64,000 bases of DNA, taken from Candidatus Omnitrophota bacterium. GTDB taxonomy: Bacteria; Omnitrophota; Gorgyraeia; Duberdicusellales; 4484-171. The position numbers were made by a program, and so were the translations under genes. Within the stretch, counting starts at the first letter, position 1. Every line of letters starts with the position of its first letter. The notes under the pieces are model-generated. The model was not told the origin of the DNA and made no database searches. It saw nothing but the letters and a program-made list of their open reading frames with translations. The DNA lies in assembly GCA_021735655.1 (NCBI GenBank), contig JAIPGM010000003.1, forward strand, positions 160,001 through 224,000, read 5' to 3'. This document shows, piece by piece, positions 4,058 through 52,511 of the stretch.

Positions 4058-6511
4058 ATGAATTACAATAAGAAGATTGATAAAAAATGGCAAAATAAAT
4101 GGATAAAGCAGGGAATTTTTTCTGTAGATAATAAAGACTCAGCAAAACCTAAATATTACTGCCTGGTAATGTTTCCTTATCCATCGAGTGAACTCCATGT
4201 TGGTCATGCCCGAAACTATGTAATTGGCGACGCTGTTGGTCGCTATAAAAGAATGCAGGGGCTTGGTGTTCTTTCTCCGATGGGTTGGGATGCTTTTGGG
4301 CTGCCGGCTGAGAATCAGGCAATTAAACATAAGATTCATCCCAAGACCTGGACTTTTAAAAATATTAAGCGGATAAAGGAGCAATTGGCAAGTTGGGGGG
4401 TAGGCTATGATTGGCCACGAGAAATCGCAACTTGTGATCCGGAATATTATAAGTGGACCCAGTGGCTTTTTTTGAGGTTATATAAAAAAGGTTTAGCCTA
4501 TCGCAAAGAAGCCCCGGTTAACTGGTGCGAATCTTGTAAAACCGTTTTAGCTAATGAACAGGTAACTAACGGAAAGTGTGAGCGTTGTTCAAATGAGGTT
4601 AACCAGAAAAATTTAGAGCAATGGTTTTTTAAAATTACTGACTATGCTGACCGTCTTTTAGATGATTTAAAACTTTTAGAACAGTGGCCGGAGCGGGTAA
4701 GAACGATGCAGGATAACTGGATTGGTAAGTCTTTCGGTGCTGAGATTAACTTTCCGGTTGAAAATTCAGAACTTAAGTTTAACTGTTTTACTACTCGAGC
4801 CGACACTATCTTTGGGGCAACTTTTTTGGGTTTAAGTTGGGGCCATCCTTATGTGGTTGAGTTAATAAAAGATCTTGCCAATAAAGACGAGATTGAAGCT
4901 TTTATTGAAAAGGTAAAAAAGCAACCTCAGTCAGCTCGTCTAATAGATAATTTTGAAAAGGAAGGAGTTTTTACCGGAAAGTTCGCAATTAATCCGATGA
5001 CCGGTGAAAAGATACCGATTTGGATTGCTAATTATATTCTTTCCGGATATGGAACCGGAGCAATCATGTGCGTTCCGGCTCATGATTCAAGAGACTTGGA
5101 ATTTGCTAAGAAGTATAGCCTACCGATTGTTGAAGTCATTGAAGCCGAAGATAAACAAAAGCGCCTTAGCATAAGCCAAGAAGCTTACGAAGGGGAAGGG
5201 TCTTTAATTAATTCGGGAAAGTTTGATCGCCTAGGCTCGGAAGAAGCTAAAGAGCAAATCGTTGATTTTATGGAAAATAACAATATTGGGAAAAGGTCGG
5301 TTAATTATAAGCTTAGGGATTGGCTGGTGTCGCGTCAGCGTTATTGGGGGGCACCGATTCCGATTATTTATTGTGAGGCTTGCGGTGAGGTTGCAGTGGA
5401 GGATAAAGATTTACCGGTTCTTTTACCGGAAGTAAAAGAGTTCTTACCTACTGGGCAATCTCCTTTAACTTATATTGATAAGTTTATTAAGGTTAAATGT
5501 CCTAAATGTGGTAAGCCAGCTCGTAGGGAAACCGATACCATGGATACCTTTGTGGATTCTAGTTGGTACTATTTACGTTACATATCGCCTAAAGAGAAAA
5601 AAACAGCTTTTGTAAGTAATGATGTAAATAAGTGGCTACCGGTAGATCAATATATCGGAGGGGTAGAGCATGCAATTTTACATTTGATGTATTCGCGTTT
5701 TATTAATAAGTTTCTTCAAGATGAGGGGCTGATAGATTTTTCTGAGCCATTTAAGCGTTTGTTTACTCAAGGCATGATTGTGAAAGATGGCAATAAGATG
5801 TCTAAGTCCAAGGGTAATGTGGTTGCTCCTGATTATATTATTGATAAGTACGGAGCCGATACCATGCGGCTTTACATTCTTTTTATCGGCCCGCCGGAGA
5901 AAGATGCCGAATGGCAGGATGAGGGATTGCTCGGCGCTTGGCGGTTCATTCAAAGGTCATTAAAGTTGGTTGATATGTTTAAGGAGTGTTCAAAAGAAGA
6001 TAACCATGAGCCAAATAATCAAGAAAAGGCTTTACTCAGAAAAGTACATTCAACGATTAAAGAAGTTACCAAGGACTTAGAGGGAAATTTTCAATTTAAT
6101 ACGGCTATTTCAAAAATTATGGAGTTAGTGAACCAGGCCTATAAGGGTATTAGCGAGGCAGCCTTAAGTAAGGATATTTTAAGGCAAACTGTTGATACGG
6201 TGTTTTTGCTTTTATCTCCTTTTACTCCGCACATCAGTGAAGAGGTTAATGAAATTCTTGGCAATAAAGAGTCTGTTTTGAAGCGTTCTTGGCCGGTAGT
6301 CAAAGAAGAGTATTTAAAGCAAGCTGAGGTTGAGATCGCAGTTTCAATAAATGGTAAGGTGAAGGATAGATTAAAGATAGATGTTAATTGGTCTAAGGAA
6401 GAAGTTGAAGTTAAAGCCTTAGCCTTAGAGAAGATAAAAAAATCACTACAAGAAAAACCGCCCAAGAAAGTCGTCTACATCGATAAGAGAATTGTTAATA
6501 TTGTGGTTTAA
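4058..6511 (+). CDS. leuS: Leucyl-tRNA synthetase
   Basis: 817 aa. HIGH motif (HVGHARNY) and KMSKS motif (KMSKSKGN). Class I LeuS architecture. Confidence 0.95.
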   Translation: MNYNKKIDKKWQNKWIKQGIFSVDNKDSAKPKYYCLVMFPYPSSELHVGHARNYVIGDAVGRYKRMQGLGVLSPMGWDAFGLPAENQAIKHKIHPKTWTFKNIKRIKEQLASWGVGYDWPREIATCDPEYYKWTQWLFLRLYKKGLAYRKEAPVNWCESCKTVLANEQVTNGKCERCSNEVNQKNLEQWFFKITDYADRLLDDLKLLEQWPERVRTMQDNWIGKSFGAEINFPVENSELKFNCFTTRADTIFGATFLGLSWGHPYVVELIKDLANKDEIEAFIEKVKKQPQSARLIDNFEKEGVFTGKFAINPMTGEKIPIWIANYILSGYGTGAIMCVPAHDSRDLEFAKKYSLPIVEVIEAEDKQKRLSISQEAYEGEGSLINSGKFDRLGSEEAKEQIVDFMENNNIGKRSVNYKLRDWLVSRQRYWGAPIPIIYCEACGEVAVEDKDLPVLLPEVKEFLPTGQSPLTYIDKFIKVKCPKCGKPARRETDTMDTFVDSSWYYLRYISPKEKKTAFVSNDVNKWLPVDQYIGGVEHAILHLMYSRFINKFLQDEGLIDFSEPFKRLFTQGMIVKDGNKMSKSKGNVVAPDYIIDKYGADTMRLYILFIGPPEKDAEWQDEGLLGAWRFIQRSLKLVDMFKECSKEDNHEPNNQEKALLRKVHSTIKEVTKDLEGNFQFNTAISKIMELVNQAYKGISEAALSKDILRQTVDTVFLLLSPFTPHISEEVNEILGNKESVLKRSWPVVKEEYLKQAEVEIAVSINGKVKDRLKIDVNWSKEEVEVKALALEKIKKSLQEKPPKKVVYIDKRIVNIVV

Positions 6512-6716
6512 CTTTTCTTTGATGACAAAATCACCATATTATACGAACTTCGTATTTGCTGCTATTATGGACATTTTACGAAACAATATTATAAGGAAAA
6601 ACCTTATAATTGGTTATATTATTATGATAAAATGGCAACAATAGAATAAATAATTTAAGCAATTAGGTAGTTCGTCTGTTAATTGTTAGATATAAAATAA
6701 AGAAATGAGGAGAAAA

Positions 6717-7310
6717 ATGAAAAAAGTATTTACCTTGATCGAACTAATTGTAGTCATCGCTATCATCGCAATTTTAGCTGCTATCATTGCTCCCAATGCC
6801 TTTAAGGCCATTGAAAAAGCGAAGGTATCTGAAGCAATTGGAGATTTTAAAGCATATAAAACCGCGGCCTATAGTTTATATGCTGATACTGGTAAATGGG
6901 TTATGGAGGGTGCGGGTATTGAGTCTACTCCTGCTGGTGTATGTTGTTTTTTATTCTTGGAATCCGATAATAATGATTTATCTGTAGACCTTACTGGCTG
7001 GGTTGGTTGGGATGGACCATACATTGAGAAAATTAAATCAGAGCACCCTTGGGGAGGTTGGTATGCTTTTCAAAGTTGGGACGCTGGTAGAGGCCCAGAG
7101 GTAGATATGTGGGTTGATTTCGAAGATGATTGTTATCAAATTCCTAAAGATTGGGGAAACGGTGGCTGTCCTGTGCCATTAAAGGCTCAACTGAAAATTG
7201 ACAGCATGGTTGATGACGGGGATCTTACGAATGGAAGTATCTTAGATGGCCCATCTACAAATCAGGTAGAAGGCGATCTAAGTTGGATTTTGGTTTGGGA
7301 TGCTTTATAG
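6717..7310 (+). CDS. Type IV pilin / pseudopilin-like protein (prepilin-type N-terminal methylation domain), paralogue 1
   Basis: GAGGAG RBS 5 nt upstream of the ATG at 6717; the track's ATG at 6705 lies inside the RBS. N-terminus MKKVFTLIELIVVIAIIAILAAIIAPNAF is a class III signal, with Glu5 present and V at -1. Shares GWDGPY and DDGDL motifs with the paralogue at 45881. Confidence 0.8.
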   Translation: MKKVFTLIELIVVIAIIAILAAIIAPNAFKAIEKAKVSEAIGDFKAYKTAAYSLYADTGKWVMEGAGIESTPAGVCCFLFLESDNNDLSVDLTGWVGWDGPYIEKIKSEHPWGGWYAFQSWDAGRGPEVDMWVDFEDDCYQIPKDWGNGGCPVPLKAQLKIDSMVDDGDLTNGSILDGPSTNQVEGDLSWILVWDAL

Positions 7311-7369
7311 TTTCAACCAAATGGAGACAGAGTTGATAGTTTTCTGATAAAATTATCTAACAAGTTGAT

Positions 7370-7402
7370 CCACCTGGGCGTCTCAGTAGGTGGATATTTT
7401 TG
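7370..7402 (+). terminator. Putative rho-independent terminator after pilin gene 1
   Basis: CCACCT (7370-7375), 12-nt loop, AGGTGG (7388-7393), followed by the T-rich ATATTTTTGCG. Confidence 0.45.
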
Positions 7403-7447
7403 CGTTATGAATATAAAAATTAACAAAAAGCAAGAAAGGAGGTAGTT

Positions 7448-7840
7448 ATGGATCAATCAAACGTATCATCAGGACAAGTTGGGGGTCAGAAAGAATCGCA
7501 GCACAATATCAGCATCCCAGTGTATCTTATTTTAACTCTTCTGTCTTGTGGGTTCTTCAATATTTATTGGAATTATCGACAGATGGAGGCTTGTAATGAT
7601 TTGTTAGGCAAGAAAGAGTTTGATTTTTGGCTTTGGTTTCTTCTTACGATTGTTACTTGCGGGATTTATCATATTTTTTATCAATACAAAATGGGATCAG
7701 CTATCGTTGAGATTCAACACAATAAAAATAAGGTCGTATTTGATAACTTGCCGATTATCAGTGTGCTGGTAACTATTTTTGGTATGACCGTAATAGTTGA
7801 TTGCATACATCAAAGTGAGATCAATAAGATAGTTAGCTAA
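7448..7840 (+). CDS. Small membrane protein, DUF4234-like
   Basis: 130 aa with two hydrophobic helices and conserved CG(F/I)YxI(F)YW-type motifs (CGFFNIYWNY, CGIYHIFYQY). The assignment rests on my recollection of this motif and needs HMM confirmation. Confidence 0.4.
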   Translation: MDQSNVSSGQVGGQKESQHNISIPVYLILTLLSCGFFNIYWNYRQMEACNDLLGKKEFDFWLWFLLTIVTCGIYHIFYQYKMGSAIVEIQHNKNKVVFDNLPIISVLVTIFGMTVIVDCIHQSEINKIVS

Positions 7841-7848
7841 TTAATAAG

Positions 7849-8235
7849 ATGCAGAGCAAGACCCAGGCGTCTAGATATGTTCTCCGGGCGCTCATTGGTT
7901 CTATTTTTTTGATCGTTGTTCTTTCTGGTGTTTGTTTTTTCTTTTTTGGAATAGACCTCAAAGAACATCTTTCGTATTTGCCTTTGTGCCCTTTTCGGGC
8001 GATTACCAAAATTCCTTGTCCCGGTTGCGGCATGACTCATGCTTTTTTGGACATCGGACAATTTAAAATTAAAGAGGCGATCACCTACAATCCTTTTTCA
8101 GTACCTTTATTTTGTTTAATGGCAATTTACTTATTCTTTGGGCGTATTCCTTTATGGCTGAAACATAAGCGTTTAGTTTATTTAGCAGTAGTTAGCGTTT
8201 TAGTGGTTTGGGTATTAGGTTTGGTAGCAAGCTAA
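7849..8235 (+). CDS. Membrane protein, DUF2752-like (CPxCG motif)
   Basis: 128 aa. N-terminal TM helix, then CPFRAITKIPCPGCGMTHAF, then two more TM helices. DUF2752 is often found beside DUF4234 genes. Confidence 0.45.
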   Translation: MQSKTQASRYVLRALIGSIFLIVVLSGVCFFFFGIDLKEHLSYLPLCPFRAITKIPCPGCGMTHAFLDIGQFKIKEAITYNPFSVPLFCLMAIYLFFGRIPLWLKHKRLVYLAVVSVLVVWVLGLVAS

Positions 8236-8274
8236 AGGTTTAGTCAATCCAATTTAATTTATTTAGCAATAACT

Positions 8275-8625
8275 ATGTTTTGCCTTACTCCTCAAGAAAG
8301 AAAGGTTATTTTTTTAATCGCTGGTTTGATTTTGTTGGGTGGTATTTTAAGATTTTTAAATACTGACAAAATAAATAAAATATTTTTAGAGAATGCCAGT
8401 AAAACTTCTGCTGAGGAAGCTAGTGGTCGGCAAATACTGATCAATATTAATAAGGCTGACAGAGGACAACTTGAGCTTTTGCCGGGTATTGGTACGGTAA
8501 CCGCAGAAAGAATTATTAATTACCGTTCTGATTACGGTATTTTTAAAAGTTTCGAAGATTTAGAAAAAGTTAAAGGAATCGGAAGCGAAAAGGCTAAAAA
8601 TTTGGCCGAGTTAATTGTTTTTTAA
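8275..8625 (+). CDS. comEA: Competence protein ComEA (helix-hairpin-helix DNA-binding)
   Basis: 116 aa. N-terminal TM helix and C-terminal HhH repeats (LELLPGIGTVTAERII and LEKVKGIGSEKAKNL). Confidence 0.8.
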   Translation: MFCLTPQERKVIFLIAGLILLGGILRFLNTDKINKIFLENASKTSAEEASGRQILININKADRGQLELLPGIGTVTAERIINYRSDYGIFKSFEDLEKVKGIGSEKAKNLAELIVF

Positions 8626-8638
8626 GAGTTAAGTCATT

Positions 8639-10075
8639 GTGGTAAATATAAATTATGGTTCTTTTTTTAATTTTTTTCTTTTTATTTTTTTTGCCTTAGG
8701 TATCATAGTTAGCGCATTTTTTCCATCATTCTTGACCTCCCTTTGTTGTTTTTTTGTTGTAAGTTTTTTTAGCTATTTTTTTTATCGGAGAAATCGACGG
8801 TTTCTTTCTGATATCTTAATTTTGGTTATCTTTTTTGTTCTTGGAGGTATTTGGTATCTGGCTAATTCGCATCATCAACCGGAATCCCTTTTAAATAAAG
8901 ATAAGCGATTTGTTCTTAAGGTAATATCTTTACCTAAAAATACAAAATTGCGCAGTAGTTTCGCTGCCGAGATAGATCAAGCAGACGGTCATCCCTTTAG
9001 ACAAACTTTAAGAGTTTATGATTATACGAAGTCTTTGGAATACTTAAATAGTTATGAGGTTTTGGGTAAGTTAACCAGAAGGAGCTATCATGATCGCTGG
9101 TTTTATTATCTTTGGATAAAGTCTAAAGCTAGGATAAATGAGCTTTCTTTGAATCCCTGGGACAAGTTTGTTAAAGGGACTAGCCTGTATATTCTTGATA
9201 TTTTTAGAAAGAATTCTACGGATCAGGCTTATCGGTTTCTGGCAGCGGTATTTTTAGGAAGAAGGGAGTTGCTGGGTGGCGAGCGTGAATTTTTCTCTCG
9301 GGCTGGAGCATCACATCTTTTGGCGATAAGTGGATTGCATGTTGGTCTTACCGCTTTAATTTTGTTTTCTTTCTTGGGATTCTTCGGCCTTTCTTTTAGG
9401 CTCCGTTTAGGAATTTCTTTAGTTTTTCTTTATCTTTATACTTTTTTGACCGGGGTCAGTCCGTCAACTTTACGGGCGGTTATTATGTACTCGGTATTTG
9501 CTTTTAGTTTTTTCTTAAAACGAAGACCACACTCTTTCAATTCTTTAGGTTTGGCCGGACTAATTTGTTTGTTAATAGATCCGGCAATGCTTTTTACAAT
9601 TGGCTTTCAACTATCTTTTATGGCAGTTTTTGCCATCCTTGTTGGTTATCGAATTTTTCCGGTTAAGTTAGTTGGCAGTCGAGCTCTGGTTTACTCTGGG
9701 CAGATTTTCTTTTGCTCTTTGTTTGTAAATGTATTTGTCACACCGTTAACCGCTTATTATTTCGGCAATATTAATACTTTGGGGATAGTCTATAATATTG
9801 TTTTGATTCCTTTTTTTACTTTTATTCTTACGATAAACTTCTTTTTAATTATATTGGCTCCAGTAAGTTTTATTGCTCAAAATTTAGGGGCTTTACTTTC
9901 ATTTCTTATTTTGATTTTTGTTTATTTGGTCCGGTTTTTAGGTTCTTTTAGCTTTTCTTATTTTAGCTGGCAATTTTCTCTAACCGGCGTGTTTGGCTAC
10001 TATTTTGTTCTGGCCGGGATTCTTGTGTTTTTCAAGCTCAAGAGTAGTCTCAAGCTCCAAAGTCCAGATAGTTAA
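8639..10075 (+). CDS. comEC: ComEC/Rec2 DNA-internalization channel protein (no metallo-beta-lactamase domain)
   Basis: 478 aa polytopic membrane protein. Competence-domain signature HLLAISGLHVG. GTG start at 8639; an alternative ATG is at 8654. Confidence 0.75.
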   Translation: MVNINYGSFFNFFLFIFFALGIIVSAFFPSFLTSLCCFFVVSFFSYFFYRRNRRFLSDILILVIFFVLGGIWYLANSHHQPESLLNKDKRFVLKVISLPKNTKLRSSFAAEIDQADGHPFRQTLRVYDYTKSLEYLNSYEVLGKLTRRSYHDRWFYYLWIKSKARINELSLNPWDKFVKGTSLYILDIFRKNSTDQAYRFLAAVFLGRRELLGGEREFFSRAGASHLLAISGLHVGLTALILFSFLGFFGLSFRLRLGISLVFLYLYTFLTGVSPSTLRAVIMYSVFAFSFFLKRRPHSFNSLGLAGLICLLIDPAMLFTIGFQLSFMAVFAILVGYRIFPVKLVGSRALVYSGQIFFCSLFVNVFVTPLTAYYFGNINTLGIVYNIVLIPFFTFILTINFFLIILAPVSFIAQNLGALLSFLILIFVYLVRFLGSFSFSYFSWQFSLTGVFGYYFVLAGILVFFKLKSSLKLQSPDS

Positions 10076-10090
10076 GGGTTGATTAATGGT

Positions 10091-10119
10091 TTGACAAGAA
10101 TAGCCTCCTTTGATATAGT
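10091..10119 (+). promoter_or_regulatory. Sigma70 consensus-like promoter immediately upstream of the BamD-like gene
   Basis: TTGACA (10091-10096), 17-nt spacer, TATAGT (10114-10119). The predicted transcription start is about 2-3 nt before the ATG at 10129 and there is no SD sequence, so the mRNA may be leaderless. Confidence 0.5.
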
Positions 10120-10128
10120 TTTTTATCA

Positions 10129-12114
10129 ATGAAGAAGGCCATTTTTCTTTTAATTCTACTTACCTTTTCTTGGTCGGTTTACCCTTTTTGGGTTTGGTCT
10201 CCTAAGACTCAGAAGTGGAAGAACCCTAAATATTCAGCCCTTTCCACTCCTTACCTTCAGTATAAAGCAGCTTTAAAGATTTTTGAAGAAGGACGCTACA
10301 AGGAAGCCCATAAGGAATTTAAGAAATTCTTAGCTCACTATCCTGATGCTAAAGAAGCGGCTGAAAGCCAATATTACCTGGGTAGATGCCTTGAGAAGTT
10401 TGATAAGTCTTATGAGGCCTTTTTAGTTTATCAAAAACTAATCGATTCTTATCCTAATAGCCAGCGGATTAACGAAGTAATTGAGAGGGAGTACAATATT
10501 GGTGAGTCCTTTTTGAATCGTGAACATAAGAAATGGCTGGGTTTGTCATTGTATGATTTTGTAGAGCATCCTTCGATATTAATTTTTAATAGTTTGGTCA
10601 ATAAGGCTCCTTATTCAGAATATGCGCCGCGAGCTCAATATAAGCTGGGGATCATTCTTTTTGAATTAGGCCGGTTTGACGAAGCTCGAGATGCTTTTCA
10701 GAAGGTAGTTGATAATTATTCTGATACTGAATGGGCTCCTCCGGCAAAGTATCAATTAGCTATAGCGACTTCGAAGGCCTTTCCGGGGGCCGACTATGAT
10801 TCTTCTTACTTACAGGAGGCTACTGCCAGGCTTGATGAGTTTATTAAAGAACATCCTGAAGCTAAGATTTCCGATCAGGCTGAGGATCAACTGAAGATTT
10901 TAAGGAACCGAGAAGCTAAAAAGAACTTTGAGATAGCTCAATTTTATGAAAATCAGGATCAATATGAAAGTGCGGTGATTTATTATCGTAAAGTCCTTGA
11001 TGAGTATATTGATAGTGATTATTATGATAGTTCTTTAGAGAAGGTTCAGGAGTTGAATCAGTTAATCGAAGGAAACTTGACTAAGAAAGATTTAATCTTA
11101 AGCCATAAAAAAGAAGCAGCTCAAACTAAGAAGGCAGAGAAGATTAGGGCAAAGGATAGAAAAAAGGACAACAAACAGGAGCTTCGACAGAATAAAATAG
11201 ATACAAAAAAGAGAATTCGACAGGAAGCAAAGATATCCAAAGAGCTTCGTCGTAAGGAAAAGCTTGCGCTTAAGTCTGAGGCCAGAGCTAAAAAAGAAAT
11301 AGCTAGGGCTAAGAAGTTAAGAGAGAAGCAGGATCGGGCACAGGAGAAGAAGAACCGTGCCAAAGAGAGACGCGAGGAAAAACTTGCCCGAAAGAATGAG
11401 GCTAAGGCGAAAAAACAGGCCCTAAGAGCTAAAGAGTTAAAAAAGAGGGAAGCTCCGACACAGGGAAAAAAAGAGTTGGTTGAAGAAAAAAGTAAGGAAA
11501 AGTTTGTTGAATTAGAATCGGCTAAAGCCAAGAAGGTACCTTTAAAGAGTCCAAAGCTAAAAAAGAAACAAGATCAGCGAGAACGAAAGCAGGCTCTTCT
11601 TGCCGAGAAGCGACAAAGAAAAATTGAGCGTAAAGCTCAAAAAAGAGCTAAAAAAGAATTTACTCGAATTAAAAAGTTAAAGAAAAAAGAAGAGCTTATC
11701 CAGAAAAAGAAAGATTCAATTGCAGCTAAGCAAAAAGCAAAGCTTGATCGGAGCAACGAAGCTAAAGCGAGGAAGGAAGCAGCCAGAGAAGAGAAACTAA
11801 GACAGAAAGCAGAACGCTTAAAAGATAAACAAGCTCTTATTGAAAAAAAGCGAGCCGAAAAATTAGCTCGTCGAATTGAAGCTAAAGTTAGAAAAGAGGC
11901 GATTAGGGAAAAGAAGTTAAAGGCCAAGCAGGAATGTATTCAAAAAGCAAAGCAGATTAAAGCCCAAAAGCGTCAAGAGAAGCTAATTAAAAAACAAAAA
12001 GCTAAAGCTAAAAAAATGGCACTTAAGGAAAAAAAGCGTAAAGAAAAATTAGCTAAAGAAAGTCGGACTGAGCCTAAAGTAGAAGCTCAAGATAAGGAGA
12101 CAGAAAATGATTAA
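10129..12114 (+). CDS. BamD(YfiO)-like TPR protein fused to a long K/E/R/A-rich charged repeat tail
   Basis: 661 aa. Signal peptide with no lipobox Cys. Residues ~40-320 are BamD-like TPR, including a SYPNSQR match to the BamD GYPNSQY motif. Residues ~320-661 are ~24-aa charged repeats (EKLARKNEAKAKKQALRAKELKK and similar), resembling TolA domain II. Confidence 0.6.
   Translation: MKKAIFLLILLTFSWSVYPFWVWSPKTQKWKNPKYSALSTPYLQYKAALKIFEEGRYKEAHKEFKKFLAHYPDAKEAAESQYYLGRCLEKFDKSYEAFLVYQKLIDSYPNSQRINEVIEREYNIGESFLNREHKKWLGLSLYDFVEHPSILIFNSLVNKAPYSEYAPRAQYKLGIILFELGRFDEARDAFQKVVDNYSDTEWAPPAKYQLAIATSKAFPGADYDSSYLQEATARLDEFIKEHPEAKISDQAEDQLKILRNREAKKNFEIAQFYENQDQYESAVIYYRKVLDEYIDSDYYDSSLEKVQELNQLIEGNLTKKDLILSHKKEAAQTKKAEKIRAKDRKKDNKQELRQNKIDTKKRIRQEAKISKELRRKEKLALKSEARAKKEIARAKKLREKQDRAQEKKNRAKERREEKLARKNEAKAKKQALRAKELKKREAPTQGKKELVEEKSKEKFVELESAKAKKVPLKSPKLKKKQDQRERKQALLAEKRQRKIERKAQKRAKKEFTRIKKLKKKEELIQKKKDSIAAKQKAKLDRSNEAKARKEAAREEKLRQKAERLKDKQALIEKKRAEKLARRIEAKVRKEAIREKKLKAKQECIQKAKQIKAQKRQEKLIKKQKAKAKKMALKEKKRKEKLAKESRTEPKVEAQDKETEND
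11100..12110 (+). repeat. In-frame coding tandem repeats (~72-nt units encoding K/E/R/A-rich helix)
   Basis: Recurrent gaaaaacttgcccgaaagaatgaggctaaggcgaaaaaa-type units at the nucleotide level. The antisense frames read as the low-complexity track ORFs 11121..11531 and 11637..11927. Confidence 0.7.
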
Positions 12115-12622
12115 ATTATTAATTCTAGCTGTATTTTTTTTAAGTTCTGGATGCGGTTATACTACTCGAGGTTCTATTTATGCCGGGAAAAAAATAATGG
12201 TTCGGCCGGTAATTAATACCATTGATGTAACTTCTCTGAGTGAAAGAACATCGGGGTATGTTAATTTTCCTATTTTGATTGAAAATAAATTAACTAATGA
12301 GATAGTAAGTAAATTTAACAATGATGGCCAACTTAAGGTAGTCAGTCAGGATCAACAGGCGCTTACACTTACTTGTTCAGTGGATAGTTACACCAAACAG
12401 ACTTTGCGTTATGAAGAGGCTAATGATGGCGAGGTGAAGGAGCAACGCTTGAGGCTGCATACACACATCAAGCTTACCTCAGCCACAGGTGAAGTATTAA
12501 TTGAAGAAGATGTTGTTGGTGAGACCGAGTATCTTGTTTCCGGAAGTGAGACCACAGCCCAAATCGCTTTAGTAAGCGATACAGCGCGAAGAATTTCCGA
12601 AGCGGTTTTGGAGCAATGGTGA
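12107..12622 (+). CDS. Lipoprotein, LptE(RlpB)-like
   Basis: 171 aa. Lipobox LSSGCGY followed by TTRGS, compare LptE CGWHLRD. Overlaps the upstream stop by 8 nt, which suggests an operon. The lptE-holA adjacency is conserved in proteobacteria. Confidence 0.45.
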   Translation: MIKLLILAVFFLSSGCGYTTRGSIYAGKKIMVRPVINTIDVTSLSERTSGYVNFPILIENKLTNEIVSKFNNDGQLKVVSQDQQALTLTCSVDSYTKQTLRYEEANDGEVKEQRLRLHTHIKLTSATGEVLIEEDVVGETEYLVSGSETTAQIALVSDTARRISEAVLEQW

Positions 12623-12685
12623 TTCGTTAGTCTTTTTATGTCAAAGCACAAGAATTGCCCGCCTTTGTTTTGAGTCAATAAAATT

Positions 12686-13378
12686 ATGAAAGTTAGAGAA
12701 AGACTTTTTTTAATTTCCGGTGGTAACTTCGACCAGCGACAACGTACACTCAGTGGTATAAAGAAAAGGTTATTTAAGGAGAAGGATTCCCCTTTAGATA
12801 CTTTTACTTTTTATGGGAAAGAGGTAGAGTTGAAGGGTTTAAATGACAAGCTGCTCACTGCTTCCTTTGGTCAGCGGAGGATGATTATTTTTAGAAATTT
12901 TCATCAGTTGGCATCTCCGGTGAGAAAGTTTATTTTTAAAAATATAAAGAGGATTCTTCTTGCGAATTATGTTGTTTTTGACAGCGATAAGGAGTATTAT
13001 CAGCTACAAAGAGATAAACGGTTTATGTCAGATAGTTTATTTACCTTGGCTATAAAGCAAGCTGCGGTATATAAGGTTAGTCCGGTAAAAAAAGATTTTT
13101 CGTTTCAGGATTTAATGAGTAGCTTGCGAAAGAATGATTTAAATAGTTCGCTTTATATTATTGAGAGTCTTTTTCGTTCCGGTAGCAACGCACACATGCT
13201 GGGCCCGCAAATCATTGGTGTATTGGTTCATAAATGTTCCGGTTTTAGTAATCCGCGGAGAGAGATTTGTCTAGAATATTTATGGGAGGCTGACCGAGCG
13301 CTTAAAGAAAAAGGAGTTGATAGTCGTCTGGCTATTGAAACTCTGTTAGTGAAGATATTTACCCCTTCAGCTGGTTGA
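12686..13378 (+). CDS. holA: DNA polymerase III delta subunit-like protein (short)
   Basis: 230 aa. The central segment (FSFQDLMSSLRKNDLNSSLYIIESLFRSG) resembles HolA domain III. Synteny fits both the proteobacterial (lptE-holA) and Firmicute (comEC-holA-rpsT) arrangements. Confidence 0.45.
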   Translation: MKVRERLFLISGGNFDQRQRTLSGIKKRLFKEKDSPLDTFTFYGKEVELKGLNDKLLTASFGQRRMIIFRNFHQLASPVRKFIFKNIKRILLANYVVFDSDKEYYQLQRDKRFMSDSLFTLAIKQAAVYKVSPVKKDFSFQDLMSSLRKNDLNSSLYIIESLFRSGSNAHMLGPQIIGVLVHKCSGFSNPRREICLEYLWEADRALKEKGVDSRLAIETLLVKIFTPSAG

Positions 13379-13669
13379 GGATTTTTTCTTAGCTGAAGTT
13401 GTTTTTTTAGTCGAAGGATTGACGAGCTTTGATAGACGTGATTTCTTATTGGCTGCCTTGTTTTTGTGAATAACATTACTTGAAACAGCCTTATCCAAAA
13501 GCTTGCATATTTTTTCTAGTGCTTTGGCGCGTGCTTTTGAGTCTTTTTCTTCAAGGCTTTTTTTAAGCGTTTTTAAGGCAACCCTAATGTTACGCTTTAC
13601 AGCAAGGTTCCGATGGTAGCGTTTTTTGCTTTGTCGTAAATCCTTTTTTGCAGCTCTTCTTTGTGGCAT
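13367..13669 (-). CDS. rpsT: 30S ribosomal protein S20 with a basic C-terminal extension
   Basis: MPQRRAAKKDLRQSKKRYHRNLAVKRNIRVALKTL matches the bS20 N-terminus. AAGGAG RBS. Its 3' end overlaps holA by 12 nt in convergent orientation. Confidence 0.85.
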   Translation of the reverse strand: MPQRRAAKKDLRQSKKRYHRNLAVKRNIRVALKTLKKSLEEKDSKARAKALEKICKLLDKAVSSNVIHKNKAANKKSRLSKLVNPSTKKTTSAKKKSSTS

Positions 13670-16810: not shown

Positions 16811-17887
16811 ATGGATTTTAAAAATATTTTAGAGTTGATGATTGAGAAAAGCGCTACCGATATTTTCTTGCGAGTAGGTAGTCCTTTACGTGGCAGGATT
16901 AATACTGAAGTTGAAGTCCTCAGGGAAGATAGATTTACTTTTGATGAAATTAAACAGATTATCGAAATGATTACTAGGGAGCGAGACCGGGAAAGGTTAG
17001 AGAAACACCGAGGTTGCGAATTTACTTATTGGTATCGAGAGTATTGGCGTTTTCGGGTCGGTATATTTTATCAACGAAACACTCCGGCCTTGGTCGTGCG
17101 TAAAATTGACTTAAGAATACCTTCATTTCTAGAACTTAATTTGCCTTCGGCGGTGTTAGAAAATTTCTGCACCGAGCGAAGAGGGTTGATTTTGCTTACC
17201 GGTATTACCGGAAGTGGTAAATCAACAACGATCGCCAGCATGATTCAATTTATCAATAATAACTATGGGCGTCATATACTCACGGTTGAGGAACCGGTCG
17301 AATTTACTTTTCAGGATGACAAATCAGTGGTTAATCAAAGGGAGATTGGAACTGATGTTGAGAGTTATCATGATGCTCTCAGGCAGTTTGCTTTACATTC
17401 ACCGGACGTTATGTATATTGGTAATATCCTTGATGCTGAAACATGTCATGCGGCACTCACTGCCGCTGAAACCGGAGTTTTGGTTTTGTCTACGCTTCAT
17501 ACGGTGAATGCTACTTCTACTATAGAGAGGATTGTGAACTTTTTCCATCCTCATCAGCATGCCTTTGTTATGAATCAGCTTTCTTTTCTGCTCAAAGGAG
17601 TTCTTTCTCAGCGCTTGATTCCTCGTGCTGACAATTTGGGAATGATTCCAGCCTATGAAGTTATGACTCTTAGCCCATCGGTATCCCGACTTATAAAGGA
17701 GAACAAAATTTGGGAAATTCCTAAATATATTGCTTCTGGTGAGCATTACGGAATGATGAGTTTTCAACAATGTTTGTTGAAATTTGTCGAGGAAGGAAAA
17801 GTAACTGCAGATCATGCCTTACAGTTTTCCGATACCCGCGAAGAGTTAGAGCTGCTAATGCGTAATAAGGGATTAATAAAGGATTAA
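16811..17887 (+). CDS. pilT: Type IV pilus retraction ATPase PilT/PilU family
   Basis: 358 aa. Walker A LLTGITGSGKSTT and a conserved Asp box / His box. GGAGG RBS. Confidence 0.8.
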   Translation: MDFKNILELMIEKSATDIFLRVGSPLRGRINTEVEVLREDRFTFDEIKQIIEMITRERDRERLEKHRGCEFTYWYREYWRFRVGIFYQRNTPALVVRKIDLRIPSFLELNLPSAVLENFCTERRGLILLTGITGSGKSTTIASMIQFINNNYGRHILTVEEPVEFTFQDDKSVVNQREIGTDVESYHDALRQFALHSPDVMYIGNILDAETCHAALTAAETGVLVLSTLHTVNATSTIERIVNFFHPHQHAFVMNQLSFLLKGVLSQRLIPRADNLGMIPAYEVMTLSPSVSRLIKENKIWEIPKYIASGEHYGMMSFQQCLLKFVEEGKVTADHALQFSDTREELELLMRNKGLIKD

Positions 17888-21931: not shown

Positions 21932-23383
21932 ATGACTTTGACCTTACTAGCCTTATGCGGTGGTATACTCACCGGTTTGAGTTTTAATTCAGAACCAACT
22001 TCTTTTTTAATCTGGTTTTCTTTAGTTCCTTTTATTCAAGTAATAAGTAAGAGCTCGCTTAAGGCGGGAATTTTTAGAGCTTTTTTATTTGGCTTTGCCT
22101 ATTATCTGGTAGTTATTTTTTGGATAGCTAAAGTTACCTTTTTGGGATTGATTGCCTTGGTTGTTTATCTTTCTTTGTATTGTGTATTGTTCTTTTTAGT
22201 CGGTCGTTACTTTTTAAAGAAACCTTTGAGACTTATCAGCCTACCTTGTTTTTGGGTTTTGATTGAGTTTTTGAAGGAGAATATTTGGACTGGTTTTGGC
22301 TGGGCTAACCTAGGGTATTCTCAGTATAATAATCTTCATTTAATCCAGGTAGCTGATATTGGCGGAGTTAAGCTGATTTCTTTTTTAGTCGTAATGGCTA
22401 ATGTTTTTATTTGGGAAGTAATCACAACCAAAGGGCCAAAACAGAAAAAGGCGATCGTCAAGAAAGCTCTTTTTGTGTGTTTGATCTTTCTGGCTTGTTT
22501 TTCTTATGGAGCTTATCGGCTTAAGAACTTAACCGAGGCAGGTTCTTTAGAAGTTACAGTAGCTCAGCCAAATATTCCCCAAAGTTTAAAATGGGATCCT
22601 AGCGCAGCTTCTTCAATTGTAGATAAGTTGGGGTCATTAGCTAAAGAAACAAAGAAAGAATCTTTAGTCATTTTCCCTGAGGCAGCTTGGCCGTATACTG
22701 TAGCTCAAGAAGATGTAGAAGATTTGAGAAGTTTTGCTGAAAGTATAGATCGGCACATTCTCATTGGTTCAGTTATCAAAGAAGGAGATAAGTTTTATAA
22801 TTCAGCCTTATTGTTTCAGTGGAGGGCATCAGCAATCCGTTTGTGTGGTTCTTATCGTAAAATAAAACTAGTTCCTTTTGGTGAGTATGTTCCTCTTAGG
22901 AAATTGTTTAGTTTTATTGAGGTGCTGAATACAATTGGAGACATAAGCCCCGGAGAAACACTTTCAGGATTTTCGCAATCCGGACATAACTATTCGGTTT
23001 TGATTTGTTTTGAGGATGTTTTAGCGAGTTATGTTACTCAGATGGTTGGTGATAGTGATTTTTTAGTTAATATTACTAATGATGCTTGGTTTGGTGGAAA
23101 CCCCCAGAGCTTTCAGCATTTGGGCGTTATGACTTTAAGAGCTGTTGAGAACAGAGTTTCTATTGTCCGCAGTGCTAATACTGGAATTAGCGGTTGGGTA
23201 TCTTTTAAAGGAGAAATTGAGAAACTAACCCATCAAGGTAAGGAAGTTTTTTTTCCGGCTATTAAAACTTTTCGAATTTCTTTGAATCGGGTACGAGGGG
23301 TTTATACTTTTTGGGGTGAGCTTTTCCCGGTTTTTTGTGGTATGTTTCTTTTAGCGGTTTTTATCAAAAGCAGCAAAGATTAG
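21932..23383 (+). CDS. lnt: Apolipoprotein N-acyltransferase
   Basis: 483 aa. N-terminal polytopic membrane domain plus a CN-hydrolase domain (VAQPNIPQSLKWDP; FPEAAWP). Confidence 0.8.
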   Translation: MTLTLLALCGGILTGLSFNSEPTSFLIWFSLVPFIQVISKSSLKAGIFRAFLFGFAYYLVVIFWIAKVTFLGLIALVVYLSLYCVLFFLVGRYFLKKPLRLISLPCFWVLIEFLKENIWTGFGWANLGYSQYNNLHLIQVADIGGVKLISFLVVMANVFIWEVITTKGPKQKKAIVKKALFVCLIFLACFSYGAYRLKNLTEAGSLEVTVAQPNIPQSLKWDPSAASSIVDKLGSLAKETKKESLVIFPEAAWPYTVAQEDVEDLRSFAESIDRHILIGSVIKEGDKFYNSALLFQWRASAIRLCGSYRKIKLVPFGEYVPLRKLFSFIEVLNTIGDISPGETLSGFSQSGHNYSVLICFEDVLASYVTQMVGDSDFLVNITNDAWFGGNPQSFQHLGVMTLRAVENRVSIVRSANTGISGWVSFKGEIEKLTHQGKEVFFPAIKTFRISLNRVRGVYTFWGELFPVFCGMFLLAVFIKSSKD

Positions 23384-25897: not shown

Positions 25898-27082
25898 ATG
25901 GACAAATCAAAAATAATTCCGATCATTCTCTTGATTTTTATTTTAGGTATAGGATTTATTGCCTACACTTTCTATCAGCAGTCTCAGGAATTAGGCAAAA
26001 AAAATCAAGATTTAACGAAGGAGAATTCCGCCTTAATCCAAGAGAAAGAAGACTTAAAAGAGCAATATAATACTCAGCGAGAGAGAAATAATGCCTTAGA
26101 AGAGAGGCAATCAGCGATGAATGCTGAACTTTCACGATTAGAGAATGAACGAGATAGTTTCCAGACAAAGTTAGCTGAAGTTACCCAGGAAAGAGATCTG
26201 TTGGTTGAGAAGCTAAGTAGTAAGCCTACTCAGTCAAGCTCAAGTTCAAGCTCAGTCCAAAGCTTTAGCCCCTCAACGGTTTCTGGAGGACAGCTTTCTG
26301 AAGATCATTGGGCAGATTTTGTTAAGGAAAAAGCTTCCTTGGAAGCAAAAGTTGGTACTTTGAATAAAGTATTGCTTGATGCAAAAAGTAAGATATCGGA
26401 ATTAGATAAAGATAATAAAGAGCTCAGTATAAAAATTGATCAGCTTAATAAAACAAGAGAAAGACTTGACGAAGAAGTACGCTTTAAAGAAAGAACCTTA
26501 CGTGTCCTGAGTATGGATTTGGTTAGCGAGAGAGAAGAGCGGGCTTCAGCTGTTACTGAATTGAGAAAACTTCGAAGCGAAAATATAAGTTTAAAGAGAG
26601 AGATTGTTTTATCGAATAAAGAAAAAATGAATTTGCAAAGTACTCTCAGAGGCGCATTGGACAGAAAAGAAAGTTTGGAAAGTAGAATTTCTGATGCCGA
26701 GAATGTTTTAAAAGAAAAATCTTTAGCTTTCGGCGAATTACAAGAGCAGCTTGAACATGCAATAATTGGCAGTAAACGTATTACTGCTTCTGAGTCAGCA
26801 TCGGTGCAGTTGCCTCCGATTGTAGTTAAACCGGAAGCTCCTGGTTTGCGAGGACTTCGTGGCGAAGTTATAGCTGTAAATAAAGAAGAAAAGTTCATAG
26901 TTGTTGATATCGGAGAAGCTTCTGGTTTACGTCCTGGCGCTTTGTTAAAAGTTATGCGTGGAGATAGAGAAATCGCAACTTTAGAGGTTATTGAGACTCG
27001 TAGGGAAATTTCTGCCGCGGACATAAAAGAAGTAGTTGGCGGGACGACTATTCAAGAAGGCGATATCGTTATAAGTCGGTAA
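25898..27082 (+). CDS. Membrane-anchored long coiled-coil protein with Ser-run linker and C-terminal beta-rich domain; function unknown
   Basis: 394 aa. N-terminal TM helix (IIPIILLIFILGIGFIAY), ~250 aa of heptad coiled coil, an SSSSSSS run, and a C-terminal ~80-aa domain (GEVIAVNKEEKFIVVDIGEASGLRPGALLKVMRGDREIATLEVIE). Confidence 0.5.
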   Translation: MDKSKIIPIILLIFILGIGFIAYTFYQQSQELGKKNQDLTKENSALIQEKEDLKEQYNTQRERNNALEERQSAMNAELSRLENERDSFQTKLAEVTQERDLLVEKLSSKPTQSSSSSSSVQSFSPSTVSGGQLSEDHWADFVKEKASLEAKVGTLNKVLLDAKSKISELDKDNKELSIKIDQLNKTRERLDEEVRFKERTLRVLSMDLVSEREERASAVTELRKLRSENISLKREIVLSNKEKMNLQSTLRGALDRKESLESRISDAENVLKEKSLAFGELQEQLEHAIIGSKRITASESASVQLPPIVVKPEAPGLRGLRGEVIAVNKEEKFIVVDIGEASGLRPGALLKVMRGDREIATLEVIETRREISAADIKEVVGGTTIQEGDIVISR

Positions 27083-44859: not shown

Positions 44860-45918
44860 ATGCAGTTAAAACAGATGAGAGGAAAAATTGATAAGATAGA
44901 CAAAAGAATAGTCGAGTTGCTTAACCAGCGGGCTCAGGAAGTAATAAAAATAAGCCTTCTTAAGAAGAAAAAGAAATTATCTCTTTATTCTCCGGAAAGA
45001 GAGGCTAGCATGCTTGAGTCTCTTAAAAAGCTAAGCCAGGGGCCTTTGCGTGGAGAAGATATTGAAAATGTTTTTCGGGAAGTTTTATCAGCCTGTCGTT
45101 CTCAGAAGGCCAATTTGGAGATTGCCTACTTAGGGCCTCAAGGCACTTTTACTCATCTTGCGGCAATAAAGAAATTCGGCAAAAGACCGGACTATCTTCC
45201 GGTAGCAAGTATTAGTGATGTTTTTGATGCCGTCGACAGAGACCAAGCGCAATACGGAGTTGTTCCGGTTGAGAACTCTACCGAAGGGGTAATTAACTAT
45301 ACTTTGGATATGTTTTTTGGCTCATCGTTAAACATTTGCGCTGAGATAACTATGAATATTTCGCACGCCCTCTTAGCTAAAGGGTCTGAGAGTATAAAAC
45401 GGGTTTACTCTAATCCTGAAGTATTTGCTCAGTGTCGAAACTGGATAGCTGCTTCCTTAAAGGATGTTGAGTTAGTTCCAGTTTCATCGACGGCTAAAGC
45501 GGCTAAAGAAGCTAAAAAAGATAAAAATGGTGCTTGTATCGGGAATAAAATTTTGGCCAATCTTTATGGTTTGAGAATAATAGCTTCTTCAATTCAAGAC
45601 TCATCAAACAATTACACAAGATTTTTGGTAATTGCTAAAAATGATAGTCCACCTTCTGGTAAAGATAAGACCTCTATTTTGTTTTCAACTAAAGATAAAG
45701 TAGGGGCTTTGCATGATATTTTGTCATCGTTTAAGGCTTCGGGCTTAAATCTTACTAAAATAGAGTCTCGGCCTTCTAAGAAAAAAGCCTGGGAGTACTA
45801 TTTCTTTGTCGATTTTCAAGGACACAAGAGCTCTGCTTTGGTTAAGAAGTCTTTGAAGAAATTAGAGAAACAATGTTCCTTTGTTAAACTTCTTGGTTCT
45901 TACCCCTGTGAAAATTAG
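44860..45918 (+). CDS. pheA: Bifunctional chorismate mutase / prephenate dehydratase (P-protein)
   Basis: 352 aa. N-terminal chorismate mutase helix pair, PDT domain (YLGPQGTF), C-terminal ACT domain. Confidence 0.85.
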   Translation: MQLKQMRGKIDKIDKRIVELLNQRAQEVIKISLLKKKKKLSLYSPEREASMLESLKKLSQGPLRGEDIENVFREVLSACRSQKANLEIAYLGPQGTFTHLAAIKKFGKRPDYLPVASISDVFDAVDRDQAQYGVVPVENSTEGVINYTLDMFFGSSLNICAEITMNISHALLAKGSESIKRVYSNPEVFAQCRNWIAASLKDVELVPVSSTAKAAKEAKKDKNGACIGNKILANLYGLRIIASSIQDSSNNYTRFLVIAKNDSPPSGKDKTSILFSTKDKVGALHDILSSFKASGLNLTKIESRPSKKKAWEYYFFVDFQGHKSSALVKKSLKKLEKQCSFVKLLGSYPCEN

Positions 45919-51944: not shown

Positions 51945-52511
51945 ATGAATAAAAAAAGTCAGTTACGAGAGTGGATTGAAGCTTTGGTTGTTGCTGGGGC
52001 GATAGCTATATTTGCCAGGAGTTTTTTCTTTCAAATTTATAAGATCCCTACGACTTCTATGGTTCCAACCCTTATGCCTGGCGATAAGATTTTTGTGAGC
52101 AAATTAACCTATGGCCCTAAGGTACCATTTACGCCTTTTCGTATTAAAGGTTTTGCTAAACCGCAAAGGGGAGAAGTGGTAGTGTTTATACCTCCACATG
52201 ATCGAAAGAAAGCCTATATTAAAAGATTGATTGGGCTACCTGGGGATAAAGTAGTTATTAAGGGAGGGAATATCTATATTAACGAGAAGATGGTGGTTGA
52301 TTCGAAAATGACACATTATTATTATAATCAGGGAGAATATGCAAAAGAGGAAGAGCCTATAGTTGTTCCCGAAGACCAGTATTTTTTTCTCGGCGACAAT
52401 AGTATTTCATCATTGGATAGCCGATACTGGGGATTTGTTGATAAAAAAGATGTTGTTGGTAAGGCTATATTTATTTGGTGGCCGCCTAGGCGGATAACCA
52501 TGATTGAGTAA
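51945..52511 (+). CDS. lepB: Signal peptidase I
   Basis: 188 aa. Catalytic Ser box (SMVPTL) and Lys box (YIKRLIGLPGD). The lepA-lepB order is classic. Confidence 0.9.
   Translation: MNKKSQLREWIEALVVAGAIAIFARSFFFQIYKIPTTSMVPTLMPGDKIFVSKLTYGPKVPFTPFRIKGFAKPQRGEVVVFIPPHDRKKAYIKRLIGLPGDKVVIKGGNIYINEKMVVDSKMTHYYYNQGEYAKEEEPIVVPEDQYFFLGDNSISSLDSRYWGFVDKKDVVGKAIFIWWPPRRITMIE

Follow-up and report, generated by a model that had tools for sequence, protein, structure and literature searches.

A probable lipid-free BamD with a long basic, predicted helical tail in Candidatus Omnitrophota

The gene studied here lies at positions 10129-12114 of a 64,000-nucleotide (nt) stretch of the genome of a Candidatus Omnitrophota bacterium (GTDB lineage Bacteria; Omnitrophota; Gorgyraeia; Duberdicusellales; 4484-171; assembly GCA_021735655.1, contig JAIPGM010000003.1, positions 160,001 to 224,000 of the forward strand), which we call the window. 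It codes for a 661-amino-acid (aa) protein which, in the explanation that we favour, is the orthologue of BamD in a derived form, of an Omnitrophota type (or Planctomycetes–Verrucomicrobia–Chlamydiae, PVC, type): it would be devoid of a lipid anchor, would begin with a conserved Trp-rich hairpin, and ends in a 342-aa basic tail that may serve as a tether or spacer. We lean towards this explanation as a whole, with some reserve; our judgement combines strong confidence in the assignment to the BamD family, fair confidence that the tail is a helical rod with charge stripes, and a tentative opinion about its function. The question matters because BamD is the only essential and near-universal lipoprotein of the β-barrel assembly machinery (BAM), and because its lipid anchor is regarded as one of its defining traits. 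The parts of the protein that precede the tail are the following.

10129..12114, + strand: bamD gene with a basic, predicted helical tail, coding for a putatively non-lipidated BamD-family product of 661 aa (open reading frame and profile matches)
10129..10185, + strand: signal peptide, aa 1-19, MKKAIFLLILLTFSWSVYP, with a predicted signal-peptidase-I-type site and no Cys (comparison with 236 relatives)
10186..10236, + strand: Trp-rich motif FWVWSPKTQKWKNPKYS, aa 20-36, the predicted mature N-terminus (alignments A1 and A2, AlphaFold2 model)
10246..11073, + strand: BamD-type tetratricopeptide repeat (TPR) domain, aa 40-315, modelled as 13 helices forming about six TPR-like pairs plus a cap (AlphaFold2, predicted local distance difference test score, pLDDT, >90)

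A BamD-type protein without a lipobox

Over the N-terminal ~315 aa, the protein scores 92.8 bits with the BamD model TIGR03302 (cutoff 81.4) and 57.9 bits with PF13525 (YfiO; cutoff 25), which bears out the BamD-like domain that an earlier, sequence-only reading of this DNA had recognised. The YPNSQ motif on which that reading relied is indeed found at aa 108-112; E. coli BamD has GYPNSQY at 153-159. The score with the enterobacterial equivalog NF008119 (27, cutoff 363) is low, as expected for a distant phylum. The best sequence match among solved structures is R. marinus BamD (E 3e-11), the top Foldseek matches include four BamDs, and the NCBI annotation of the orthologues is BamD. The known BamD proteins (E. 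coli 2YHC/3Q5M, R. marinus 3QKY, N. gonorrhoeae 5WAQ, F. johnsoniae 9N2D) are the best neighbours of the window protein in predicted structure and in sequence: they have in common with it the TPR fold that is modelled for it, the YPNSQ and L..LR...AK..F.IA.FY signature helices, and a gene neighbourhood devoted to outer-membrane biogenesis. The window protein differs from them in that a putative signal-peptidase-I site and a Trp-rich N-terminal hairpin take the place of the lipobox Cys, in one extra helical pair (aa ~114-159), in the 342-aa polycationic, predicted helical tail, and in the Tyr residue that occupies the position of E. coli R197. We consider that it very probably belongs to the BamD family. 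In 79 Omnitrophota species representatives, the number of loci of this same family is one per genome; BamA is not found within the 64-kb window.

The absence of a lipidation Cys, which had been noted from the sequence, is clear: the only Cys residues are at positions 87 and 603, and there is none in the first 86. In 236 family members, the residues at position -3 of the putative cleavage site are A (143), V (30), S (23), G (11), L (10) and T (9), those at -1 are A (109), P (62), S (52) and G (7), and those at +1 are F (147) and Y (49), a pattern that looks like that of signal peptidase I. In every close homologue, the signal peptide is followed by ...A-Y-[S/P/A] and then by FWIWSPKTQKWKNPKYS. 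An exhaustive profile search returned 693 representatives at E <= 1e-30, and the nearest 150 were examined for their layout: all 150 have a signal peptide, an AxA-type site and then [FY]W[IV]W[ST]P.TGKW.NPK. No lipobox was found in the ~280 family members examined, including these 150. Throughout a large family in Omnitrophota and Verrucomicrobiae, the lipobox is as a rule absent; this is not peculiar to the window gene.

The loss of lipidation appears to be specific to BamD and not genome-wide, since the adjoining LptE keeps its lipobox (GC/GYTTRG in 66 of 72 genomes, the slash marking the boundary after the Cys) and since the window encodes both the apolipoprotein N-acyltransferase Lnt and signal peptidase I. 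More generally, the window organism is a diderm that bears lipopolysaccharide (LPS) and has a working lipoprotein pathway, because the window also encodes, in addition to these two enzymes and to the lipobox-containing LptE, LpxB, an LpxL-type acyltransferase, an MsbA-like transporter, SecA and DegP.

The predicted mature N-terminus is strongly conserved: F20, W21, W23, K26 and P33 do not vary in alignments A1 and A2, and the motif is common to hundreds of relatives, including proteins from Verrucomicrobiae. AlphaFold2 predicts that it folds as a small β-hairpin (strands 22-24 and 29-31) which resembles a tryptophan zipper. The hairpin may take over the part of the lipid anchor, or it may dock onto BamA. 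A whole branch of diderms, consisting of Omnitrophota and their Verrucomicrobiae relatives, thus appears to run BAM with a lipid-free BamD that would be processed by signal peptidase I, that starts with a conserved Trp-rich hairpin and whose C-terminus has repeatedly been extended.

The searchable literature gave no description of a lipid-free BamD, of a lysine-rich BamD tail, of BamD in Omnitrophota or of BamD-LptE fusions, in keeping with the earlier remark that the architecture is unusual. The window gene is apparently one instance of a broader, so far undescribed, PVC/Omnitrophota-type BamD architecture.

The charged tail: design, predicted structure and evolution

The tail was modelled with AlphaFold2 from an alignment of 73 sequences (mean pLDDT of the protein 82). 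Its parts are listed below.

11083..11439, + strand: predicted tail helix 1, aa 319-437, 119 residues, ~18 nm if straight (pLDDT ~90 falling to ~55 along the helix)
11155..12111, + strand: about eight diverged 40-aa (120-nt) repeats, consensus.EAKAKKE..R.KKLK.K....Q.KK.....KR.EKL.RK (DNA repeat spacing, protein autocorrelation)
11440..11562, + strand: Pro/Gly-containing break between the predicted helices, aa 438-478 (pLDDT <50)
11563..12060, + strand: predicted tail helix 2, aa 479-644, 166 residues, ~25 nm if straight (pLDDT 80-91)

The composition of residues 1-320 is ordinary, whereas the C-terminal 342 aa consist, as had been seen in the sequence, largely of K (29%), E (14%), A (13%) and R (11%), with a net charge of +78. 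The distal end of the tail is a short, acidic, disordered stretch, and there is neither a terminal binding domain nor a membrane anchor. The repeats had been described as at least ten copies of ~24 aa; the true period is 40 aa, with about 7-8 copies. In the autocorrelation of the protein sequence, the main peaks are at lags 40 (identity 0.34, z = 11.2) and 80 (z = 10.0) and smaller ones at 7, 11, 18 and 22; the DNA repeats are spaced by 120 nt, the 120-nt units being 60-70% identical. These units were seen by repeat finding and protein autocorrelation, while Tandem Repeats Finder run on the tail DNA gave trivial short arrays only.

The basic residues are coherent over the entire tail at 99 degrees per residue (z = 10.9), that is, 40/11 = 3.636 residues per turn. 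The acidic residues are coherent at the same angle (z = 6.9) and point ~160 degrees away from the basic stripe, and the apolar residues have no coherence at the helical frequency (resultant 0.12). Opposite charges are not paired more often than expected at i+4 (40 pairs vs 45.8 +/- 5.3) or at i+3 (40 vs 46.1 +/- 5.0), and such pairs are depleted at i+7 (25 vs 45), where like charges recur. The same design is found in relatives. In 65 tails of at least 100 aa, analysed with a shuffle control that takes the maximum over the band, the basic residues peak at 99-99.5 degrees in nearly all cases (z >3 in 65% of them), the acidic residues are ~170 degrees out of phase with the basic ones, and there is no coherence among the apolar residues (median z -0.3). 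The repeat lags that different tails prefer (18, 29, 40, 47, 51 and 58) are all whole numbers of helical turns, and stripes at 3.62-3.64 residues per turn are kept in most of the 65 tails though the tail sequence diverges. If the tail is helical, as the models predict, it carries a straight Lys/Arg stripe and, on the opposite side, a narrower Glu/Asp stripe, without a hydrophobic seam.

The sequence-only reading had likened the tail to domain II of TolA or to a single α-helix (SAH), and here it does not hold. SAH domains are near-neutral and stabilised by E-K/R pairs at i to i+4 (and i+3). The tail resembles SAH or ER-K segments in being highly charged, rich in E, K and R, and predicted to form a long isolated helix; it differs from them by i+3 and i+4 pairs that are at or below expectation, by its strongly basic character, and by the location of opposite charges on opposite faces. 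Like domain II of TolA and TonB, it is a long, charged, low-complexity periplasmic segment which is predicted to be extended. Comparison with residues 48-310 of E. coli TolA reveals a different chemistry: 40% Ala in TolA against 30% Lys in the tail, a net charge per 100 aa of +2.7 against +25, 45 opposite-charge i/i+4 pairs (22 expected) against 39 (42 expected), and a basic stripe at 99 degrees with z = -1.0 against 9.3. Nor does blastp detect any similarity between the tail and domain II of TolA (E = 3.2), there is no match to a TolA or TonB Pfam family, and, unlike TolA, the tail protein has neither a transmembrane anchor nor a C-terminal binding domain. There is nevertheless a parallel on the scale of families: domain II of TolA and TonB alternates between helical and polyproline versions (PMC12204202), just as members of the window family alternate between helical and Pro-rich extensions. 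What remains of the earlier description, a non-lipidated BamD tethered through a rigid charged helix, is a TPR protein without a lipidation Cys whose tail is probably a rigid α-helix; the TolA- or SAH-like design is what has to be abandoned.

Two other designs that the periodicities of 11, 18, 22 and 40 had suggested, the class-A lipid-binding amphipathic helix and the hendecad coiled coil, were rejected, there being no coherent apolar stripe.

The opposite, straight basic and acidic stripes, with no ladder of salt bridges and no hydrophobic seam, make the tail a distinct physical design, unlike SAH domains, coiled coils and domain II of TolA, of possible interest for protein engineering as well as for envelope biology. 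A sequence search of the PDB with the tail alone gave no match (the best E value, 0.88, is that of a designed protein), and a homology search with the tail alone, in which 8000 candidates were scored, retrieved the closest BamD orthologues and no other architecture. The charged tail is not a proteome-wide habit, since the scan of the window gave only two other highly charged segments, both of them short.

The tail is also found in orthologues. The 120 best homologues are all from Omnitrophota, and they comprise tail-less proteins of ~312-318 aa and closer relatives of 400-578 aa with tails. Among 72 species representatives, 19 have tails of 88-478 aa and ~53 are tail-less, with intermediates of 8, 21 and 44 aa; the longest tail is that of L011, whose protein has ~797 aa and a net charge of +122. 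In tail-less genomes, bamD overlaps lptE directly, with no gene in between, and the order leuS-comEA-comEC-bamD-lptE-holA-rpsT(-)-murJ-uvrC is identical in tail-less and tailed genomes, so that the tail grew in place and is not a captured gene. In a neighbour-joining tree of 232 N-terminal domains, the proteins with K-rich, charged tails form one contiguous block of ~53 leaves, every member of which is tailed. The tail characterises a single clade of Omnitrophota, in which a 40-aa unit was amplified into the present 342 aa.

The window protein aligns collinearly with its closest relative, P0001 (578 aa), except for one gap of 80 aa, which is exactly two repeat units (aa 433-512, window 11425-11664). 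The length of the tail changes by whole 40-aa units. Because the 80-aa segment that is absent from P0001 includes the Pro/Gly break, the tail of P0001 would be one uninterrupted helix.

The C-terminus of BamD is an evolutionary hot spot. Most of the nearest 150 representatives are tail-less (~315-330 aa), and some have Pro/Ala-rich tails, such as P0171 (P 22%). The sole precedent that we found for a C-terminal extension of BamD is the ~60-residue one of the α-proteobacterial proteins (PMC3359395).

A further clade of 985-1139 aa, of Verrucomicrobiae type (P0164 and ~28 other representatives), has a C-terminal extension of ~700 aa with coiled-coil-like segments and Pro/Ala linkers, in which no Pfam domain was found. 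It includes HTL48049.1, a protein from a Verrucomicrobiae bacterium which is named BamD by NCBI.

We also observed that the mean net charge of the TPR domain is -6.3 in tailed species (-8 in the window protein) and +4.6 in tail-less ones (p = 9e-8, uncorrected for phylogeny), and that this domain is more acidic in proteins with any type of extension than in tail-less proteins. This could be a charge compensation, or a transfer of the basic surface to the tail. We do not rely on this shift as evidence, since the tailed species form one clade.

Fusions with LptE and the possible function of the tail

Sister lineages of Omnitrophota contain natural BamD::LptE fusions. A full LptE domain was first found after the BamD domain in P0151, P0137 and P0162, and a further search brought the number to at least eight clusters of 561-685 aa; the additional ones, P0283-P0287, come from NCBI, JGI, ENA and Logan and are 38-60% identical to P0137. 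In all eight, the LptE part begins just after the position of the lipobox Cys of stand-alone LptE, and the junction, [FL][FLA][FG]GY[TS][TS]G, contains no Cys and no signal peptide. The linkers have 81-205 aa, with 17-27% Lys, 5-20% Pro and a net charge of +1 to +21. At the L089 locus (fusion at 5001-6746), the gene order is leuS-comEA-comEC-[bamD::lptE]-holA-rpsT-murJ-uvrC; at the L088 locus (fusion at 5001-7058), lptG-lptF lie divergently upstream and holA-rpsT downstream. Since the genomic context matches and there is no separate lptE at either locus, the BamD::LptE proteins are evolved fusions, not frameshift artefacts.

These fusions resemble the window BamD by their N-terminal signal, Trp motif, TPR domain and synteny, and by a K-rich, net-basic segment which starts at the same C-terminal point. 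That segment is shorter (81-205 aa) and richer in Pro than the window tail, and continues into an LptE that lacks the signal peptide and the lipobox Cys, whereas in the window a stop codon closes the tail and LptE is a protein of its own, which is lipidated and whose translation is coupled to that of BamD. The fusions are evidence of the Rosetta-stone type for a physical link between outer-membrane protein (OMP) assembly and the insertion of LPS in the organisms that have them. In E. coli, a link of this kind is discussed mainly in relation to the maturation of LptD on BAM; the fusions make it directly testable.

We propose the following mechanism. The window BamD would leave the cytoplasm through Sec and, instead of being lipidated, would be cleaved by signal peptidase I, which would leave the conserved Trp-rich hairpin (FWIWSPKTQKWK) at the mature N-terminus. 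Instead of a lipid anchor, the hairpin and the TPR domain would then keep the protein attached to BamA or to the inner side of the outer membrane. The tail, modelled as two α-helical rods of ~18 and ~25 nm joined by a flexible break, would extend from the BAM complex into the periplasm as a rigid polycationic arm, acting as an electrostatic tether or spacer that holds BAM against a polyanionic partner of the envelope. The most plausible partner would be the LptD/LptE translocon together with the LPS that it carries; other candidates are the head groups of anionic phospholipids and peptidoglycan. LptE is favoured because its gene and bamD are translationally coupled, because the synteny is invariant, and because sister lineages have fused BamD to a Cys-less LptE through a K-rich, net-basic linker. 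We regard this tether or spacer function as a tentative idea, somewhat short of probable.

A bolder version of it, which we find rather doubtful, is that BAM and LptD/LptE form one coupled machine for outer-membrane biogenesis in Omnitrophota. The coupling would be covalent in the fusions, where both anchors are lost, and non-covalent in the window clade, where a Lys/Arg stripe of 25-45 nm would hold LptDE/LPS or gather anionic lipids beside BamA. If so, this would be a new way of organising the insertion of OMPs and LPS, and the lipid-free BamD and LptE of the fusions would be natural examples of proteins anchored only by protein contacts and the Trp-rich hairpin.

Several observations weigh against our overall explanation. 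Tail length spans a tenfold range (44-478 aa) among related species and ~53 of the 72 species representatives have no tail, which speaks against the tail being a precise ruler or having an essential function. Residue R197 of E. coli BamD, the partner of E373 of BamA, aligns with a Tyr that is invariant in the family (Y285), which speaks neither for binding to BamA nor decisively against it. The Pro residue at position -1 in the subclade of the window protein is atypical for signal peptidase I, which makes the exact cleavage site uncertain. Last, the charge of LptE seemed to co-evolve with the presence of a tail (p = 0.013), but this value is uncorrected for phylogeny and there is no correlation within clades; we rejected it as evidence.

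The same variation in length and the large number of tail-less species would be accounted for if the tail were a neutral low-complexity expansion, produced by slippage of the 120-nt unit at a permissive C-terminus, in a protein that works like its tail-less orthologues. The clean two-unit indel between the window protein and its closest relative also fits with slippage, as do the quite different extensions found at the same site in other lineages and the divergence of the tail, which is so fast that only the closest orthologues are detectable. Neutral drift does not, on the other hand, readily explain why phase-coherent K/R and D/E stripes persist in most of the 65 divergent tails, with repeat lengths that are whole helical turns, why every member of the ~53-leaf clade has retained its tail, why long open frames are maintained in A-rich DNA, or why the same site is used for the conserved fusion to LptE. 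We consider a neutral origin unlikely. The tail is real and probably selected, since it is found in a second assembly, the whole ~53-leaf clade is tailed, its length changes by whole units, its stripes are conserved and AlphaFold2 predicts helices.

A different objection bears on the identity of the protein, which might be a soluble periplasmic TPR protein similar to CpoB (YbgF) that coordinates envelope processes, a canonical lipidated BamD being encoded elsewhere in the genome. CpoB is naturally non-lipidated, with a signal of the signal-peptidase-I type, as the window protein appears to be from its sequence, and joins a TPR domain to a long helical region. The TIGR02795 (YbgF/CpoB) model reaches 82.3 bits in two separate stretches, near the cutoff of 90.1 and yet below it, and alignment of the family profile with hhalign gives 96% for E. 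coli CpoB and 89% for E. coli BamD. The latter alignment, however, covers 152 columns and spans the long signature helix, whereas that with CpoB covers 117 columns and has a gap there, and the full-length CpoB model NF008068 scores only 39 bits against a cutoff of 383. The architecture is also reversed: CpoB has an N-terminal trimeric coiled coil followed by three TPRs, while the window protein has about six TPR-like pairs followed by a strongly basic helical region without a hydrophobic seam. Neither tolQRAB nor pal was found in the flanks of the window gene or in the related loci examined, which are all of the comEC-bamD-lptE-holA type; lptE is in every case the neighbour or the fusion partner of the gene, which lies once beside lptF/lptG. 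The BamD identity is favoured because only the BamD model passes its curated cutoff and because of the long-helix alignment, the number of TPR-like pairs, and the constant association with lptE and never with tol-pal. A CpoB-like identity is in our opinion improbable; if these genomes do encode a canonical BamD at another site, the family would instead represent a new envelope factor of the CpoB kind with a link to LptE, likewise so far undescribed.

With the BamD identity retained, the tail could be imagined to span the periplasm as domain II of TolA or TonB does, and to connect BAM to the inner membrane (Sec/YidC or anionic lipids), either coupling the two membranes or setting the width of the periplasm. 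The predicted rods of 18 and 25 nm are comparable to the 24 +/- 5 nm of the E. coli periplasm (PMC13067283), and the Pro/Ala-rich extensions of related lineages mirror the alternation between helix and polyproline seen in TolA and TonB (PMC12204202). This is quite improbable, considering that lengths of 44-478 aa among close relatives, and of zero in most species, are incompatible with a fixed span, that the distal end is acidic and disordered, with no binding domain or membrane anchor, and that the physicochemical design is unlike that of TolA domain II.

The proximity of comEA and comEC, which lie directly upstream of the gene in all relatives, raises the idea that DNA arriving in the periplasm is bound by the polycationic tail, which would help ComEA/ComEC to take it up; BamD was first described in Neisseria as ComL, a competence lipoprotein. 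The +78 net charge arranged as a Lys/Arg stripe, and the title of the F. johnsoniae BamD entry ('DNA uptake lipoprotein-like protein'), would agree with this idea, which we find highly improbable all the same. Tail-less orthologues have the same comEA-comEC neighbourhood, so that synteny does not follow the presence of a tail; a near-consensus promoter-like site between comEC and the ATG seems to belong to bamD itself; and the covalent fusions join LptE, not competence proteins. The order comEA-comEC-holA-rpsT is common, of a housekeeping kind, and its genes are not known to be functionally linked, which also counts against a role in DNA uptake.

Although A-rich repetitive DNA could invite assembly errors, there is next to no chance that the tail results from a faulty assembly, from a frameshift or from the erroneous joining of a separate gene to bamD, an origin that the sequence-only reading had named as a possible refutation, since an independent Logan assembly yields the identical 661-aa protein, P0001 is found on 8 contigs, tails occur in 19 species-representative genomes, and bamD abuts lptE in tail-less relatives, with no gene in between that could have been captured.

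Neighbouring genes and the rest of the window

The other features of the window to which we refer are the following.

8275..10075, + strand: comEA (8275..8625) and comEC (8639..10075), conserved upstream neighbours
10091..10119, + strand: σ70-type promoter-like site, TTGACA, 17-nt spacer, TG-extended TATAGT (11/12 consensus matches, TG present; a consensus match alone)
12107..12622, + strand: lptE, lipoprotein of 171 aa, lipobox FLSSGC/GYTTRG (PF04390)
12686..13378, + strand: short holA-like gene, 230 aa, conserved downstream neighbour (TIGR01128, E 1.2e-9, below cutoff)
21932..23383, + strand: lnt, apolipoprotein N-acyltransferase, a marker of the lipoprotein maturation pathway
51945..52511, + strand: signal peptidase I (Peptidase_S26), the putative processing enzyme of the window BamD

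The start of lptE overlaps the end of bamD, stop codon included, by 8 nt in the +1 frame, as had been noted. The promoter-like site ends 9 nt 5' of the bamD ATG, with no Shine-Dalgarno sequence in between, which suggests that the bamD-lptE transcript would be leaderless or nearly so. A promoter-like site of comparable quality precedes rpsT (13722-13694, minus strand).

That holA follows lptE was also seen correctly, with the qualification that the gene is short and only holA-like: its TIGR01128 score is 38 bits, for a cutoff of 80. The orthologues of close relatives are equally short (229-234 aa), whereas the lineages with fusions have a HolA of 285-331 aa with recognisable DNA_pol3_delta domains. 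The order leuS, comEA, comEC, bamD, lptE, holA, rpsT(-), which covers positions 4058-13669 and is conserved across Omnitrophota, merges two classic arrangements, leuS-lptE-holA of E. coli and comEA-comEC-holA-rpsT of Bacillus.

The GC skew is positive in all 2-kb bins of the window (1-64000), and 47 of the 52 open reading frames of at least 150 aa are on the + strand; at least one of the five on the minus strand is a shadow reading frame inside a plus-strand gene. This is consistent with a long leading-strand stretch of co-oriented housekeeping genes. Components of a pilus or competence pilus are encoded near comEA-comEC: two type IV pilin-like proteins with N-terminal methylation motifs (6705-7310 and 45881-46501) and a T2SSE/PilB-like ATPase (16811-17887). 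A 394-aa reading frame at 25898-27082 has no Pfam match at E <= 1e-5 and contains a short, charged, coiled-coil-like segment (26375-26503).

Last, many records of metagenome-assembled genomes labelled 'uncultured Planctomycetia bacterium' (L007, L009, L011, L012, L014, L017, L021 and others) carry a bamD-lptE locus of the Omnitrophota type, the product of which is 50-72% identical to the window protein; these automatic labels are probably wrong or very coarse.

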